Below the pieces are notes generated by a model, which saw only the letters and a program-made list of their open reading frames with translations, was not told where the DNA came from and did no database searches. A program made the translations under genes and the position numbers. A stretch of DNA of 64,000 nucleotides, taken from assembly GCF_054482595.1 (NCBI RefSeq), contig NZ_CM137008.1; one strand, written 5' to 3'. Of this stretch, positions 19,309 to 40,699 are shown piece after piece (the first letter of the stretch is position 1; the number at the start of each line of letters is the position of its first letter).

Positions 19309-20349
19309 ATGAAAAAAGTTTTATTACAAAACCATCCTGGGAGCGAGAAGTATTCTTTTAATGGCTGGGAAATATTTAATAGTAATTTTGAACGGATGAT
19401 TAAAGAAAATAAGGCCATGCTGCTTTGTAAGTGGGGAGGTTATTTAACATGTGTTGTCGCTGTAATGTTTGTATTCGCAGCGATAACATCCAACGGTTTG
19501 AATGAAAGAGGCCTGATTACTGCGGGATGCTCTTTTCTTTATCTATTAATTATGATGGGGCTTATTGTTCGGGCCGGTTTTAAAGCAAAAAAAGAACAAC
19601 TGCATTATTATCAGGCTAAAGGTATTGAGCCGCTCAGTATCGAGAAGTTACAGGCGCTACAATTGATCGCACCTTATCGATTCTATCATAAGCAATGGTC
19701 TGAAACGCTGGAGTTCTGGCCGCGAAAGCCTGAACCTGGCAAAGATACCTTCCAATATCATGTGCTTCCTTTTGACTCGATCAATATCATTAGTAAAAGA
19801 CGCGAGTCTTTAGAGGATCAATGGGGTATCGAAGATAGCGAAAGTTATTGTGCCTTAATGGAGCATTTTCTTTCTGGCGACCATGGAGCCAATACCTTTA
19901 AAGCAAACATGGAGGAAGCCCCAGAGCAGGTTATCGCCTTGTTGAATAAATTTGCTGTTTTTCCCTCAGATTATATCTCTGATTGCGCTAATAATCGCTC
20001 CGGTAAATCCTCGGCGAAGCTAATATGGGCGGCGGAATTATCATGGATGATCTCGATATCAAGCACAGCTTTTCAAAACGGGACAATTGAAGAAGAACTG
20101 GCCTGGCATTATATAATGCTTGCTTCTCGAAAGGCGCACGAGTTGTTCGAAAGCGAAGAAGATGATCAAAAAAATAGTCTAATGGGATTTCTTTACTGGC
20201 ATATCTGCTGCTATCGCAGAAAGTTAACGGATGCTGAACTTGAAGCGTGTTATCGTTACGACAAGCAGTTTTGGGAGCACTACAGTAAGAAATGCCGTTG
20301 GCCCATAAGAAATGTTCCCTGGGGAGCATCATCCGTTAAATACTCATAA
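19309..20349 (+). CDS. ynjI: Inner-membrane DUF1266-family protein YnjI
   Basis: ORF 19198-20349; start placed at MKKVLLQNHPG (346 aa); two predicted TM segments near the N-terminus. Confidence 0.8.
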   Translation: MKKVLLQNHPGSEKYSFNGWEIFNSNFERMIKENKAMLLCKWGGYLTCVVAVMFVFAAITSNGLNERGLITAGCSFLYLLIMMGLIVRAGFKAKKEQLHYYQAKGIEPLSIEKLQALQLIAPYRFYHKQWSETLEFWPRKPEPGKDTFQYHVLPFDSINIISKRRESLEDQWGIEDSESYCALMEHFLSGDHGANTFKANMEEAPEQVIALLNKFAVFPSDYISDCANNRSGKSSAKLIWAAELSWMISISSTAFQNGTIEEELAWHYIMLASRKAHELFESEEDDQKNSLMGFLYWHICCYRRKLTDAELEACYRYDKQFWEHYSKKCRWPIRNVPWGASSVKYS

Positions 20350-20361
20350 ACGCCTGAAATT

Positions 20362-20457
20362 TTGCCGGGGGCGCTGCGCTTGCCCGGCCTACATTAGAGC
20401 GTAACTGCAATGAATTGTGCCCATTTGTAGGCCTGATAAGCGTAGCGCCATCAGGCA
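20362..20457. repeat. Pair of REP (repetitive extragenic palindromic) units, BIME-like, between convergent ynjI and gdhA
   Basis: ttgccgggggcgctgcgcttgcccggcctaca and tgtaggcctgataagcgtagcgccatcaggca match the enterobacterial REP consensus (GCCTGATGCGACGCT.../CCGGCCTAC). Confidence 0.8.
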
Positions 20458-20465
20458 TTTACAAC

Positions 20466-21809
20466 TTAAATCACACCCTGCGCCAGCATCGCATCGGCAA
20501 CCTTCACAAAACCGGCAATGTTCGCGCCCTGCACGTAGTTGGTTTGCTCACCTTCACCACCATGCTCAACACAGGCATGGTGGATATCCAGCATGATGTG
20601 ATGCAAACGTGCGTCAACTTTCTCGGCTTTCCAGCCCAGGCGCGCAGCGTTTTGTGCCATTTCCAGGCCTGACGTTGCTACACCGCCAGCATTAGCCGCT
20701 TTACCCGGTGCAAACAGTACGCCTGCCTGCTGGAACAGTTCAGTCGCTTCGATGGTGGTCGGCATATTTGCCCCTTCGGCGACGGCTTTAACGCCATTGG
20801 CGATAAGCTGATGCGCGGCGTCAACATCCAGTTCGTTCTGGGTAGCGCAAGGCAGGGCGATATCAACCGGTACAGACCACGGCTGTTGGCCTTCGAGATA
20901 GACCAGACCAAATTCTTTGGCGTAATCTGCCACTCGACCATCGCGGCTGGCTTTGATTTCGATAAGACGTGCCAGTTTCTCTTTCGTGAATCCGCTTTCA
21001 TCAACTACAGTGCCGCTGGAGTCTGACGCAGTGATCACACGAGCACCAAATTCCATCGCTTTTTCGATAGCGTACTGGGCGACGTTGCCGGAGCCAGAAA
21101 CGGAAACGCGCATCCCTTCAAAACCCATACCGTGGCGTTTTAGCATTGCTTCTGTGAAATAAACCAGACCGTAGCCGGTAGCTTCCGGGCGAATAAGACT
21201 GCCGCCAAATGAAAGGCCCTTACCGGTGAAGACGCAGGCGGTATTGTTGGAGAGCTTTTTCATCATCCCCGCCATAAAGCCGACTTCACGACCACCAACC
21301 CCGATATCACCTGCCGGAACGTCGGTATCCGCGCCCAGGTGGCGATACAGTTCAGTCATCAGCGCCTGGCAAAAACGCATCACTTCACCTTCGCTTTTTC
21401 CTTTCGGATCGAAATCGCTGCCGCCTTTACCACCGCCCATCGGCAGAGTAGTCAGGGCATTTTTGAAGGTTTGTTCAAAGCCGAGGAATTTGAGAATGGA
21501 AAGGTTAACTGACGGATGGAAGCGCATACCGCCTTTGTACGGGCCGATGGCAGAGCTGAACTGCACACGCCATGCACGGTTGACCTGTACCTGATTGCGA
21601 TCATCAACCCATACCACGCGAAACTGGATCACGCGCTCCGGTTCAACCAGACGCTCCAGTAATGACATCTGGCGATATTTTGGATTTTGTTCAAGAAAAG
21701 GCCAGAGTGTGGTCATTACTTCACGAACGGCTTGCGCGAACTCGGTTTGATTCGGGTCGCGCTTTTGGACATGGTTGAGGAATGACTCCAGAGAATATGT
21801 CTGATCCAT
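20466..21809 (-). CDS. gdhA: NADP-specific glutamate dehydrogenase
   Basis: 447-aa ORF with GDH signature LPMGGGKGGSDFDPKGKS and C-terminal NAD(P) Rossmann domain. Confidence 0.95.
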   Translation of the reverse strand: MDQTYSLESFLNHVQKRDPNQTEFAQAVREVMTTLWPFLEQNPKYRQMSLLERLVEPERVIQFRVVWVDDRNQVQVNRAWRVQFSSAIGPYKGGMRFHPSVNLSILKFLGFEQTFKNALTTLPMGGGKGGSDFDPKGKSEGEVMRFCQALMTELYRHLGADTDVPAGDIGVGGREVGFMAGMMKKLSNNTACVFTGKGLSFGGSLIRPEATGYGLVYFTEAMLKRHGMGFEGMRVSVSGSGNVAQYAIEKAMEFGARVITASDSSGTVVDESGFTKEKLARLIEIKASRDGRVADYAKEFGLVYLEGQQPWSVPVDIALPCATQNELDVDAAHQLIANGVKAVAEGANMPTTIEATELFQQAGVLFAPGKAANAGGVATSGLEMAQNAARLGWKAEKVDARLHHIMLDIHHACVEHGGEGEQTNYVQGANIAGFVKVADAMLAQGVI

Positions 21810-22044
21810 AGATATAAAACCCTTATATATTAATACGATTGTGCTTATGTTGTTTATGTGATGTGCTTTTGCAGTTTTCGACTATACCATCAAGAATGTG
21901 ACGGTAAGCAAGAAAAAAATGACCCAGGAAAGCAAATTAATAACGAGAGTAATCTCATAACCAAATGCGATAACTCAGACGCTAAAGTTTTGCCACCCGG
22001 CTACCGTTATCAGTAGCAGAGACAATAACGTTAAGGAGTTCCCT

Positions 22045-22317
22045 GTGAGTCGAGCATTGTTCGCCGTAGTATTAGCATTTCCATTAATTGCACTGGCTAA
22101 CCCGCATTATCGTCCGGACGTGGAGGTAAACGTACCGCCAGAAGTGTTCAGTTCAGGCGGGCAGTCAGCGCAGCCCTGTACTCAGTGCTGCGTTTATCAG
22201 GATAAAAATTATTCTGAAGGGGCGGTAATTAAAGCCGAAGGAATACTGCTGCAATGCCAGCGGGATGACAAAACCCTTAGCACTAATCCGCTGGTCTGGC
22301 GGCGCGTAAAGCCATAA
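22045..22317 (+). CDS. ynjH: Small secreted DUF1496 protein YnjH
   Basis: 90-aa ORF with N-terminal signal peptide (MSRALFAVVLAFPLIALA) and four Cys; 3' end overlaps nudG by 35 bp. Confidence 0.75.
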   Translation: MSRALFAVVLAFPLIALANPHYRPDVEVNVPPEVFSSGGQSAQPCTQCCVYQDKNYSEGAVIKAEGILLQCQRDDKTLSTNPLVWRRVKP

Positions 22318-22690
22318 ACGCCTCTAATAATGGAATGTCAGCAGGAGCCAGCGGATATTGCAGCGCCTCTTCAGGTGAGCACCAGACCAGCGCCTGATGT
22401 TCATGTGCCTGTAACGTCCCGTGGAAGTCGGGTACGTGCCAGGCATGAAGATGGATAATCCGCCCCGAAACTTCTCGCTGATGGCTGGCAACATACTCAC
22501 CCACAGTTGCTTCGATGCCCAATTCTTCGTTTAACTCACGCACCAGCGCCTGCTGCTGGCTTTCATCCAGCTCGACTTTACCACCGGCAAACTCCCATAA
22601 TCCCGCCTGATCGCTCTGGGCGGGGCGTTGCGCGAGTAAAATTTTGCCATCACGTTCAATGATGGCGGCAACAACTTCAATCATTTTCAT
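22283..22690 (-). CDS. nudG: Nudix hydrolase NudG (CTP/5-methyl-dCTP pyrophosphohydrolase)
   Basis: 135-aa ORF with Nudix box GGKVELDESQQQALVRELNEELGI. Confidence 0.9.
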   Translation of the reverse strand: MKMIEVVAAIIERDGKILLAQRPAQSDQAGLWEFAGGKVELDESQQQALVRELNEELGIEATVGEYVASHQREVSGRIIHLHAWHVPDFHGTLQAHEHQALVWCSPEEALQYPLAPADIPLLEAFMALRAARPAD

Positions 22691-22770
22691 AAATTACACA
22701 CGGGCAGATAAGCGAAAAATGCCATAATATCCGCACTGTTGCTCAATTAGAAAGGCTTTATATTTAAGGA

Positions 22771-23397
22771 GTGCCTGTGCTAGACCGCCATCTTCATCCC
22801 CGGATTAAACCGTTGTTGCATCAGTGCGTGCGGGTTCTTGATAAACCGGGCATTACGCCAGATGGTTTAACATTAGTGGGATTTGCCATCGGCGTGCTGG
22901 CTCTGCCGTTTCTGGCTCTGGGCTGGTATCTGGCGGCGCTTGTCGTCATTTTGTTGAATCGTCTGCTTGATGGTCTGGATGGCGCACTGGCGCGGCGCAG
23001 AGGGCTTACCGACGCGGGCGGCTTTCTTGATATTTCTCTCGATTTTCTCTTTTACGCGCTGGTGCCGTTTGGTTTTATTCTTGCTGCACCGGAGCAAAAT
23101 GCGCTGGCAGGCGGCTGGTTGTTGTTTGCGTTTATCGGTACGGGCAGCAGTTTTCTCGCCTTTGCTGCGCTGGCGGCGAAACATCAGATTGATAATCCCG
23201 GTTATGCGCATAAATCGTTTTATTATCTGGGGGGATTAACCGAAGGCACAGAAACGATCTTACTGTTTGTGCTGGGATGTTTATTCCCTGCATGGTTTGC
23301 GTGGTTTGCGTGGATCTTCGGTGCGTTGTGCTGGATGACGACCTTTACGCGGGTGTGGAGTGGGTATCTGACGCTGAAGTCGCTCCAGCGTCAGTAA
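22771..23397 (+). CDS. ynjF: CDP-alcohol phosphatidyltransferase-family membrane protein YnjF (GTG start; the true start may be the second GTG at 22777)
   Basis: Polytopic membrane ORF with the CDP-OH phosphotransferase motif region DGxxAR (LDGLDGALARRRGLTDAGG); no ATG at the 5' end. Confidence 0.8.
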   Translation: MPVLDRHLHPRIKPLLHQCVRVLDKPGITPDGLTLVGFAIGVLALPFLALGWYLAALVVILLNRLLDGLDGALARRRGLTDAGGFLDISLDFLFYALVPFGFILAAPEQNALAGGWLLFAFIGTGSSFLAFAALAAKHQIDNPGYAHKSFYYLGGLTEGTETILLFVLGCLFPAWFAWFAWIFGALCWMTTFTRVWSGYLTLKSLQRQ

Positions 23398-23405
23398 TTG
23401 CAATG

Positions 23406-24713
23406 TTATTTGCTGCTGTCCGGGCCGCGTTCACCGGTTGCTACCGGATTTTTTGGATCGCTGCTCCATTCGTACCAGCCGCCGTCGTAAACGGAGACGT
23501 TATTCCAGCCCATTGCTCGTGCGTACATAAAGGTTTCGGACGCGCGCCAGCCGGTGCCGCAGTAGAATGAAACTTGCTGATCTGGTTTGATATTCCATGC
23601 TTTCCACATAGCGGTAATATCATCGGCGCTACGCATGGTGCCATCCGGGTTATGGAAATCTTCCATATGCGTCGAGTCGCTACCAGCGTGTCCCCAACGT
23701 GCTCCGGCTATTTCACCTTTTGGTTTAATATAGCTGTAACCGCTGGTCGTACCGATAAACTCCGGCCACGAACGAATGCTCACCAGCGATGCATCCTGGC
23801 GATGCAGCAGTCCACGGGCCTGTTCCATATCGAGCATCAACTGCGGTTGTGCCGGGATCTTCACGCCGAAATCCGGTTCCGCTTTCACTTTCGGTGGCGT
23901 TCCTCGCTCAACAGGCAGTCCCGCGTCGGACCAGGTTTGCCAGCCGCCATCCAGCAGGCGCACATCTTTCACGCCTGCATACAGCATAATCTGCGCCACA
24001 CGCGCTGCAGCGTATACGTCACGCCCGTACAGAATGACCGTGGTGTCATGGCGAATGCCGTGTTTTGCCAGCATCGCTTTTAGTTGTTCATCAGAAACTT
24101 TGTTCCACAGCGGTTCGCTTTCCACTTCGTTGGTATCGATGTAGTCAGCACCGGGAATATGGCTGATAAGGTAAAGCTTAGGAGCGCCCCAGGCCGCTTC
24201 AATGACTTTCCAGTCTCCGGCAGGTTTCGCCGTAACCTCTTTACCTTGTTGCAGGTCGTGCAGCCATTGCGGATAAACCAGCTGCTCAAAGTGCGGCAGT
24301 TTTTGTAGACGGGAAGGTTCGCTTAGCGCGTCACTCAGAATGGAGATATGCGTAAAACCTGCTTTTTGCAGTCGCGTTTTGACGGCGTCGACATCTTTGC
24401 CATTACCGTACAGCGCCACCGGGGCATCGGCTTTCAGGTTATGTTGCTTGATCCACGCGTTGAGCTGTTCGGTGCTCATTTTGTCAAGCCAGCTAGCAGA
24501 GAGGTTTAAGGCGGCAGGTTCATGACCAGAAGGGCCATTTAAGGTTTGTGGCCAGCCGTTATAAAACGCGCTGGGGCGAGTATCTATCGCTTTGCCATTT
24601 TGTTGTTGAAGCTGGTCAAGTGTAAGAGGCTTCGCCAGTTCAGCGGCCCACGAAGAAGCGCAAGCCAGCCCTAAAGCCATTGCCAGCGCGGTCATTTGAG
24701 AAACACGTTTCAT
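23406..24713 (-). CDS. ynjE: Periplasmic triple-rhodanese thiosulfate sulfurtransferase YnjE
   Basis: Signal peptide MKRVSQMTALAMALGLACASSWA and a C-terminal rhodanese active site CGTGWRAS; start at MKRVSQ (435 aa). Confidence 0.88.
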   Translation of the reverse strand: MKRVSQMTALAMALGLACASSWAAELAKPLTLDQLQQQNGKAIDTRPSAFYNGWPQTLNGPSGHEPAALNLSASWLDKMSTEQLNAWIKQHNLKADAPVALYGNGKDVDAVKTRLQKAGFTHISILSDALSEPSRLQKLPHFEQLVYPQWLHDLQQGKEVTAKPAGDWKVIEAAWGAPKLYLISHIPGADYIDTNEVESEPLWNKVSDEQLKAMLAKHGIRHDTTVILYGRDVYAAARVAQIMLYAGVKDVRLLDGGWQTWSDAGLPVERGTPPKVKAEPDFGVKIPAQPQLMLDMEQARGLLHRQDASLVSIRSWPEFIGTTSGYSYIKPKGEIAGARWGHAGSDSTHMEDFHNPDGTMRSADDITAMWKAWNIKPDQQVSFYCGTGWRASETFMYARAMGWNNVSVYDGGWYEWSSDPKNPVATGERGPDSSK

Positions 24714-24779
24714 CGAAAATCCCGACATTGTAGTTTTGAGTGCGCCATTCTGAACTGACGCATTGAGAAAAACTTTGCG

Positions 24780-25433
24780 TTATCGCAGTTTGTTGTAATT
24801 TTCTGACCACTGAGCCATATCCAGAACAGAACTATCAGCAGGAACATCCTGGAGATCGTGCGTTACCTGAACGACGGGGATCGCCAGGGCGCGAACTTCG
24901 CTGAACACCCACTGGCGAAAATTATCGCGCAGAGCCACATCAAGACGGCTGAATGGCTCATCCAGTAGCAACGCTTTTGGCTGAGCGAGAAGGGCGCGAA
25001 GCAGAGCAACGCGCGCTCGCTGACCGCCAGACAAAGTGGCAGGATCCTGATGGAAAGCTCCGTCAAGGCCTGAACGCTCAAGTGCATCATTCACGGCATT
25101 ACGTCGGGCATTCCCCTTAAGTGTCGCCGGTAGCGCCAGCAGTAAATTTTGCCCGACACTGAACTGGTCAAATAACAGTGCATCCTGAAAAAGAATGCCA
25201 ATCTGACGCTGTGCGGTGGGTAGCATGTCAATCCGTTGCTCATTGAGCCATAGCTCACCTGTACAAGAAAACTGTCCGGCCAGTGCACCAATCATCCATG
25301 AAAACAGAGTGGATTTTCCACAGCCAGACGGCCCCATTAACGTGACAATGTCACCTTTATCCACCGTAAAGTTAACGTTTGTCAGCAAGCGGCTTTCTGG
25401 TAAACGTAGCGAAACATTTTTCACGCAGAGCAT
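24780..25433 (-). CDS. ynjD: ABC transporter ATP-binding protein YnjD
   Basis: Walker A GPSGCGKST, ABC signature LSGGQRARVAL, Walker B LLLDEPFS; start at MLCVKNVSL (217 aa), overlapping the ynjC stop. Confidence 0.88.
   Translation of the reverse strand: MLCVKNVSLRLPESRLLTNVNFTVDKGDIVTLMGPSGCGKSTLFSWMIGALAGQFSCTGELWLNEQRIDMLPTAQRQIGILFQDALLFDQFSVGQNLLLALPATLKGNARRNAVNDALERSGLDGAFHQDPATLSGGQRARVALLRALLAQPKALLLDEPFSRLDVALRDNFRQWVFSEVRALAIPVVQVTHDLQDVPADSSVLDMAQWSENYNKLR

Positions 25434-39198: not shown

Positions 39199-40699
<1,501 letters not shown>

Follow-up and report, generated by a model that had tools for sequence, protein, structure and literature searches.

The convergent genes ynjH and nudG share their last 35 bp in the 64,000-nucleotide stretch of DNA that we analyzed (the window). 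This ancient tail-to-tail overlap of functional genes is probably a by-product of gene packing under protein-level constraints and not a dedicated RNA device. The ynjH gene (22045..22317, plus strand) starts with GTG and codes for a FliA/sigma28-dependent protein of 90 amino acids with a signal peptide and a DUF1496 domain. Its partner nudG (22283..22690, minus strand) codes for a Nudix CTP/5-hydroxy-CTP pyrophosphohydrolase of 135 amino acids. The shared segment (22283..22317, both strands) includes the stop codons of the two genes, TAA of ynjH at 22315-22317 (plus strand) and TAG of nudG at 22283-22285 (minus strand). Within it, the sequence places ynjH codon positions 1, 2 and 3 opposite nudG positions 1, 3 and 2, respectively.

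The initial annotation had reported the 35-bp convergent overlap, and we found the same ends in the open reading frame listing, in the RefSeq/PGAP annotation and in K-12. Strain XH990, which is 100% identical over positions 21800-22800, has the same PGAP coordinates for both genes. The overlap is also the same in K-12 MG1655 (b1759, nudG, 1841490-1841897, plus strand; b1760, ynjH, 1841863-1842135, minus strand). The window is E. coli chromosomal DNA, and 5423 of 5426 complete genomes of this species carry the locus. The overlap is already known from annotations and publications alike. For example, the "overlapping genes nudG and ynjH" illustrate strand-specific ribosome profiling in Figure 1 of GWIPS-viz (2018, PMC5753223). 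Furthermore, nudG-ynjH is one of the 165 convergent excludons in Table 1 of ExcludonFinder (NAR 2025, PMC12288877), which lists pairs scored as convergent excludons in at least 50% of 58 MG1655 transcriptomes. Being part of the reference annotation, a textbook-style browser example and a catalogued excludon, the overlap matters little as a discovery. It does have a practical consequence, as deletions of ynjH or nudG must leave 22283-22317 intact; the primers used for the ynjH::thyA deletion retain roughly the last 24 nt of ynjH (Fitzgerald et al., 2014).

Both partners are bona fide genes. The Pfam model DUF1496 matches YnjH residues 33-89 (E 1.7e-24), the NUDIX model matches NudG residues 4-125 (E 4.7e-22), and the structure of full-length NudG has been solved (PDB 2RRK). 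Orthologs of the two genes span about 20 genera. Sense RNA-seq reads exist for each gene (Huang et al., 2020, PMC7373196), and ribosome-profiling tracks of both are displayed in GWIPS-viz Fig. 1 (PMC5753223). The ends of the reading frames are fixed by stop codons, so the tail-to-tail overlap is not an artifact of start-codon annotation. We found no point in favor of one frame being spurious or ending earlier, and the domains, the solved structure, the fixed stops and the selection in both frames of the overlap (see below) led us to reject this reading, whose chance of being correct is practically nil. Each tail is conserved and subject to selection, which rules out a re-annotation of either gene with a shorter C-terminus, an outcome that the initial annotation had allowed for.

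Constraints on the length and sequence of the overlap

We scanned for YnjH in one genome per species and recovered 58 loci, to which the window and one Salmonella locus were added for a total of 60. Of these 60 Enterobacteriaceae loci, 49 retain the overlap, whose length is always 35 bp (21 loci), 41 bp (27 loci) or 44 bp (1 locus). A random sequence has a chance of ~0.6, or (61/64)^10, of keeping a frame open for 10 more codons; at ~60%, the overlap is by itself statistically unremarkable. Chance does not account for its retention in 49 of the 60 loci, which represent about 20 genera.

The remaining loci lack an adjacent nudG (9 loci) or carry degraded genes (2 loci). The first group includes the T. 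guamensis locus (L010, 3255-3400), where ynjH is intact and the adjoining nudG remnant is internally deleted, and a locus (L028) with nudG 1.9 kb away, which codes for the only unlinked NudG, a protein of 130 amino acids. Degraded genes were found in C. koseri NCTC10786 (L009, 3225-3600), in which NudG is frameshifted ahead of its last helix and ends in ...PLAPADIRC*, and in Enterobacter sp. EA-1 (L054, 3001-3565), where ynjH is interrupted by an in-frame stop and nudG by a frameshift. The pair has decayed independently in T. guamensis, C. koseri and Enterobacter sp. EA-1. In loci without the neighboring nudG, ynjH is directly followed by a terminator-like hairpin in L028 and L042, by REP-like palindromes in L025, L030 and L048, and by another tightly convergent gene in L029 and L031. 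The product of the latter gene has a C-terminus (…SDHAPVW…) that we recognized by eye as exonuclease III-like, and we presume the gene to be xthA.

The lengths of the overlap follow from what the YnjH tail can encode. We enumerated every synonymous coding of this tail for stops in the nudG frame and found them to be possible only at V88|K89 (11-bp overlap), T80|N81 (35 bp), S79|T80 (38 bp) and L78|S79 (41 bp). The N-P-L-V-W-R-R-V codons all start with a base other than A, which leaves no possible stop between 11 and 35 bp. Hence, the overlap length is quantized by the invariant C-terminal beta-strand of YnjH (TNPLVWRRV), which cannot encode a nudG-frame stop between these two positions. The switch between 35 and 41 bp is the silent third base of T80: the codon ACT makes the TAG stop of nudG and is present in 21 loci, exactly those with the 35-bp overlap. 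The 11-bp overlap needs GTT or GTC at V88 and would end NudG at residue 127, within its terminal helix; it is absent wherever nudG is present.

The overlap divides into two parts according to the protein that constrains it. YnjH dominates 22283..22306 (both strands), where its residues T80-V88 lie opposite NudG residues 129-135 and the TAG stop. T80-V88 fall within the DUF1496 model and are invariant or nearly so, also where an adjacent nudG is lacking (9 loci). The AlphaFold2 model of YnjH has a signal peptide followed by a low-confidence linker and a small Cys-containing beta domain at the C-terminus (~45-90, pLDDT 87-93), predicted with confidence and closed by a strand at residues 83-88 (block pLDDT about 89). 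A Foldseek search of the PDB with this model returned nothing significant (best E = 0.63, VWF/mucin Cys-rich modules). The NudG residues encoded in the same part (129-135) vary across loci. Site entropies, averaged over the 49 loci with the overlap, agree with this division. They are 0.58, 0.39 and 1.33 for ynjH positions 1, 2 and 3 in ynjH-only DNA, 0.60, 0.47 and 1.45 for nudG positions 1, 2 and 3 in nudG-only DNA, and 0.29, 0.18 and 0.86 for ynjH positions 1, 2 and 3 in the overlap. The overlap thus keeps the codon periodicity of ynjH and inverts that of nudG.

The influence of NudG is apparent in 22307..22317 (both strands), which comprises the third base of V88, K89, P90 and the TAA stop of YnjH, opposite NudG residues F125-L128. 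F125 is the last invariant residue of NudG across loci, and the NUDIX match also ends there, 2 nt from the ynjH stop codon. The AlphaFold2 model of NudG (pLDDT 94) extends beyond this point with a C-terminal helix (118-130) and a coil of lower confidence (131-135). On the YnjH side, K89 and P90 are variable. Codon choice in ynjH differs between loci with nudG and the control group without it in Fisher tests that ignore phylogeny and draw on only 8 control loci: GTT or GTC at V88 (0/49 vs 3/8, p=0.0019), CGC at R87, which corresponds to NudG R129 (42/49 vs 3/8, p=0.007), A as the third base of P90 (47/49 vs 4/8, p=0.0023) and TAA as the ynjH stop (48/49 vs 4/8, p=0.0008). With A at P90, residue 126 of NudG remains Met or Ile.

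Judging from these alignments, both frames clearly leave signatures of selection inside the overlap. Conservation and structure prediction point to NudG residues 131-135 as a passenger tail under low constraint. The diversity of four-fold sites in ynjH is lower in the overlap than elsewhere (1.18 vs 1.57 bits, n=6 vs 3, p=0.048). Together with the biased silent sites of ynjH, this reduction suggests that constraint on the NudG tail, or on the RNA, may exceed that of a mere passenger.

These observations are consistent with the following scenario for a packing by-product. The ynjH and nudG genes abut without a spacer, and the terminal helix of NudG would have to reach about residue 130. The strand opposite the NudG end is committed to the invariant last beta-strand of YnjH, leaving T80|N81 (35 bp) or L78|S79 (41 bp) as the next nudG stop. 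As no earlier stop is available, NudG would bear a poorly constrained passenger tail of 5-7 residues, and the position of its stop toggles with a silent base of ynjH.

Transcription across the ynjH-nudG locus

We identified a candidate sigma28-like promoter for ynjH by reading the sequence upstream of the gene (TAAAGTTT-N13-CCGTTAT, 21983..22010, plus strand). Eleven loci of Escherichia, Citrobacter and Salmonella carry the exact motif upstream of ynjH, and looser versions ending in CCGTTAT are present in additional genera. In E. coli, FliA ChIP-seq has a site at ynjH, whose expression is 15- to 50-fold FliA-dependent (RNA-seq values of 29 vs 2 in a fliA deletion; 0.02 of the wild type by qRT-PCR) (Fitzgerald et al., 2014). 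The Salmonella gene STM1300 (ynjH) is likewise FliA-dependent. Thus, the membership of ynjH in the FliA (sigma28) regulon is conserved.

The FliA motif given for ynjH in Table 2 of Fitzgerald et al. (2014) (TAACGTTATTGTCTCTGCTACTGATAAC) lies on the opposite strand (22006-22033, minus), directly next to the Shine-Dalgarno sequence. The ynjH-sense motif at 21983-22010 is better placed, and its -10 element overlaps that of the published motif to form a near-palindrome. We also noted that a p19-captured double-stranded RNA (U00096.2 1840194-1840217) maps to window positions 21987-22010, on the ynjH promoter candidate, which implies that both strands are transcribed across it.

Neither strand has an intrinsic-terminator-like site in the region scanned (21700-22900). 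Rfam gave no match at E<=1 in 20000-25000, and the folding of both strands around the overlap did not differ from that of shuffled sequences (z = -1.09 and -0.20). We considered an 11-bp perfect inverted repeat (22289-22299 / 22382-22392) as a long-range stem, and it proved to consist of identical LVW codons of the two proteins. In other genera, silent sites of its nudG arm change with no compensating substitutions, and we therefore rejected it as a chance match. These results bear on the idea that the overlap serves converging polymerases as a site of programmed collision or bidirectional termination. Head-on collisions at convergent E. coli gene pairs can indeed terminate transcription. However, the mechanism requires a stem-loop to position the collision, and the overlap has neither hairpin nor terminator; the only inverted repeat at the locus is not conserved, and antisense reads reach far past the overlap. 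We regard a collision site as highly improbable.

Published total RNA-seq (Table S1c of Huang et al., 2020, PMC7373196) documents transcription of both strands. The values, in RPM from single libraries without gene-length normalization and from a strain and condition not picked for FliA activity, were (sense/antisense) 8.99/45.36 in the wild type, 3.81/29.19 in rnc-14 and 5.58/16.99 in rnc-38 for nudG, and 79.97/2.69, 78.97/0.94 and 27.40/2.48 for ynjH in the same order. Antisense reads on nudG are thus ~5x its sense reads and track the level of ynjH, in a region where antisense in neighboring genes is typically 1-3% of sense (PMC7373196). The excess of antisense over sense reads means that nudG expression needs to be measured in a strand-specific manner. 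Per base pair, we computed densities of about 0.29 RPM/bp for ynjH, 0.11 for nudG antisense and 0.03 for ynjF from the same table, and the first two values indicate that the ynjH transcript extends far past 35 bp. The complementarity of the mRNA 3' ends noted in the initial annotation is therefore sound: at least 35 nt are forced for full-length mRNAs, and the published reads document the transcript overlap. Neither ynjH nor nudG has a mapped 3' end or a full-length transcript in the accessible supplement text of Adams 2021, TERMITe 2025 and SMRT-Cappable-seq 2018.

A regulatory consequence of this pairing is a separate matter. In a functional convergent excludon, FliA-activated ynjH would lower nudG through convergence of polymerases and/or cleavage of the RNA duplex by RNase III, and motility would be coupled to less nucleotide sanitation or (p)ppGpp hydrolysis. 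The ExcludonFinder listing (PMC12288877), the antisense excess on nudG, the p19-captured double-stranded RNA on this gene (6-35 RPM, up to 34.7; Huang et al., 2020, PMC7373196), the conditional expression of ynjH under a sigma28 promoter that is conserved between E. coli and Salmonella, and the persistence of the arrangement across genera are all in line with such a device. However, nudG sense RNA did not rise in the RNase III mutants, the check proposed in the initial annotation, nor did it do so in rnc-38, where ynjH drops 3-fold. Indeed, ynjH and nudG are not anticorrelated over the three libraries (PMC7373196). Furthermore, none of the duplexes listed in the accessible part of Table S3 is a discrete 21/22-bp RNase III duplex inside ynjH, nudG or the overlap (PMC7373196), the accessible supplementary files of the FliA-regulon study have no entry for nudG (Fitzgerald et al., 2014), and protein constraints fully account for the conservation. 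The available numbers weakly disfavor an effect on nudG through RNase III or interference, and we consider a functional excludon unlikely. Excludon pairs as a class do show higher synteny and mutually exclusive expression in single cells (ExcludonFinder, PMC12288877), which would fit selection on the arrangement and counts against a by-product. In sum, the two RNAs show a genuine, asymmetric complementarity, and regulation through it is hypothetical. The step from complementarity to regulation in the initial annotation finds support in the overlapping transcripts and the double-stranded RNA on nudG, and none in a regulatory effect. "Mutual" antisense regulation in particular is unlikely, as read-through goes from ynjH into nudG and makes the interaction strongly one-sided.

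The read-through could also serve the next gene. In a noncontiguous operon, the ynjH transcript would cross and silence nudG and feed the expression of ynjF. The order and strands of ynjH (plus), nudG (minus) and ynjF (plus) fit this proposal, as do the lack of a terminator on the plus strand from ynjH to ynjF and the gradual fall in read density over the three genes. On the other hand, ExcludonFinder reports only three such operons in E. coli and ynjH-nudG-ynjF is not one of them (PMC12288877), ynjF is missing from the accessible FliA supplementary files (Fitzgerald et al., 2014), and Salmonella has an additional gene between ynjF and nudG. Furthermore, a C-rich, G-poor stretch (22460..22620, plus strand), a putative rut-like region located 150-300 nt past the ynjH stop with a GC skew of -0.33 to -0.38 on the ynjH-sense strand, suggests Rho termination ahead of ynjF. 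Weighing these points, we see only a slim chance that the three genes form an operon of this type.

The same C-rich stretch may be an entry region for Rho at which ynjH read-through stops, a plausible role given its composition. The packing by-product that we favor has consequences for transcription. A terminator has no space between ynjH and nudG and none exists, so the stronger, sigma28-driven ynjH transcript runs antisense well into nudG. It probably ends inside nudG by Rho termination or decay, and it pairs in part with the weak nudG mRNA, yielding some double-stranded RNA. Any effect on nudG expression is presumably small.

Other convergent pairs in the window

The window contains a second convergent overlap of coding sequences, 41 bp long (39778-39818), between ves (39243-39818, plus strand) and the excinuclease gene cho (39778-40665, minus strand). 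Like ynjH, ves is reported as a FliA-dependent non-flagellar gene, and cho-ves is also on the ExcludonFinder list (PMC12288877). The sense/antisense values are 7.9/19.2, 6.4/22.0 and 5.7/34.6 RPM for cho and 156.7/4.7 for ves (Huang et al., 2020, Table S1c, PMC7373196). The asymmetry is the same as in ynjH-nudG, and the weak partners, nudG and cho, are both mutation-avoidance genes. The nudG product is a Nudix sanitizer of oxidized or modified pyrimidine nucleotides. Conceivably, read-through from sigma28 class-3 genes acts as conditional antisense against mutation-avoidance genes (ynjH to nudG, ves to cho), and transcriptional interference would then cost motile cells some of their capacity for nucleotide sanitation and repair. 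We give this idea little credence.

Closer to the overlap, ynjF (plus) and ynjE (minus) converge at 23397-23406 with an 8-bp gap and form another ExcludonFinder convergent excludon (PMC12288877). A p19-captured 21/22-bp RNase III duplex (U00096.2 1838676-1838699, PMC7373196) maps to window positions of about 23505-23528, in the 3' part of ynjE and about 110-130 nt beyond the ynjF stop. The strands of ynjH, nudG, ynjF and ynjE alternate with essentially no space for terminators. Inside ynjE and in its sense orientation lies an intragenic sigma54 site, IS23 (U00096.2 1838213; window about 23991, minus strand), and the next gene on the same strand, 1309 bp away, is nudG (Bonocora et al., 2015). 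Transcription from IS23 would cross ynjF in antisense. The longest reading frames of these two neighbors start upstream of the annotated positions, ynjF with a GTG at 22771 (annotated, 22777) and ynjE at 24728 (440 amino acids; annotated, 24713 and 435 amino acids). Farther along, ydjO and tcyP also converge very tightly, with only 3 bp between their ends (51649-51653). The gaps of the nine convergent pairs in the window (92, 116, -35, 8, -41, 46, 3, 40 and 52 bp) indicate that near-zero or negative spacing is common in this region.

Comparison with known systems

The ynjH-nudG pair resembles the convergent excludons described in ExcludonFinder (PMC12288877) in having neighboring genes on opposite strands, overlapping transcripts and double-stranded RNA over nudG. 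It differs from them in that the rnc data reveal no derepression of nudG and in that the overlap includes coding sequence and not only untranslated regions. With the bidirectional intrinsic terminators (Ju et al., 2019; Wang et al., bioRxiv 2022.10.23.513370), the locus shares convergent transcripts whose ends have very little space between them. However, ynjH-nudG lacks the hairpin, A-tract and U-tract, and a hairpin or REP element follows ynjH in relatives without nudG. The concept of the noncontiguous operon reportedly comes from Saenz-Lahoya et al. in 2019. It is also used in ExcludonFinder (PMC12288877), and the layout of ynjH, nudG and ynjF fits it, but the locus is not among the three E. 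coli cases of that study.

The pair is closest to the convergent overlapping genes of bacteria, which are said to have been treated as a class by Rogozin et al. in 2002, Fukuda et al. in 2003, and Johnson and Chisholm in 2004. As in those pairs, two bona fide genes share their 3'-terminal codons on opposite strands, and a tail extension under low constraint is set by the next available stop; we found no essential difference. Overlaps of 35-41 bp are longer than is typical of bacteria. The ynjH-nudG overlap is also unusually well conserved because the tail of one partner is an invariant structural strand. The locus illustrates neatly how the length of a convergent overlap is set by an invariant peptide encoded on one strand, with a passenger tail dragged along on the protein of the other strand, NudG.
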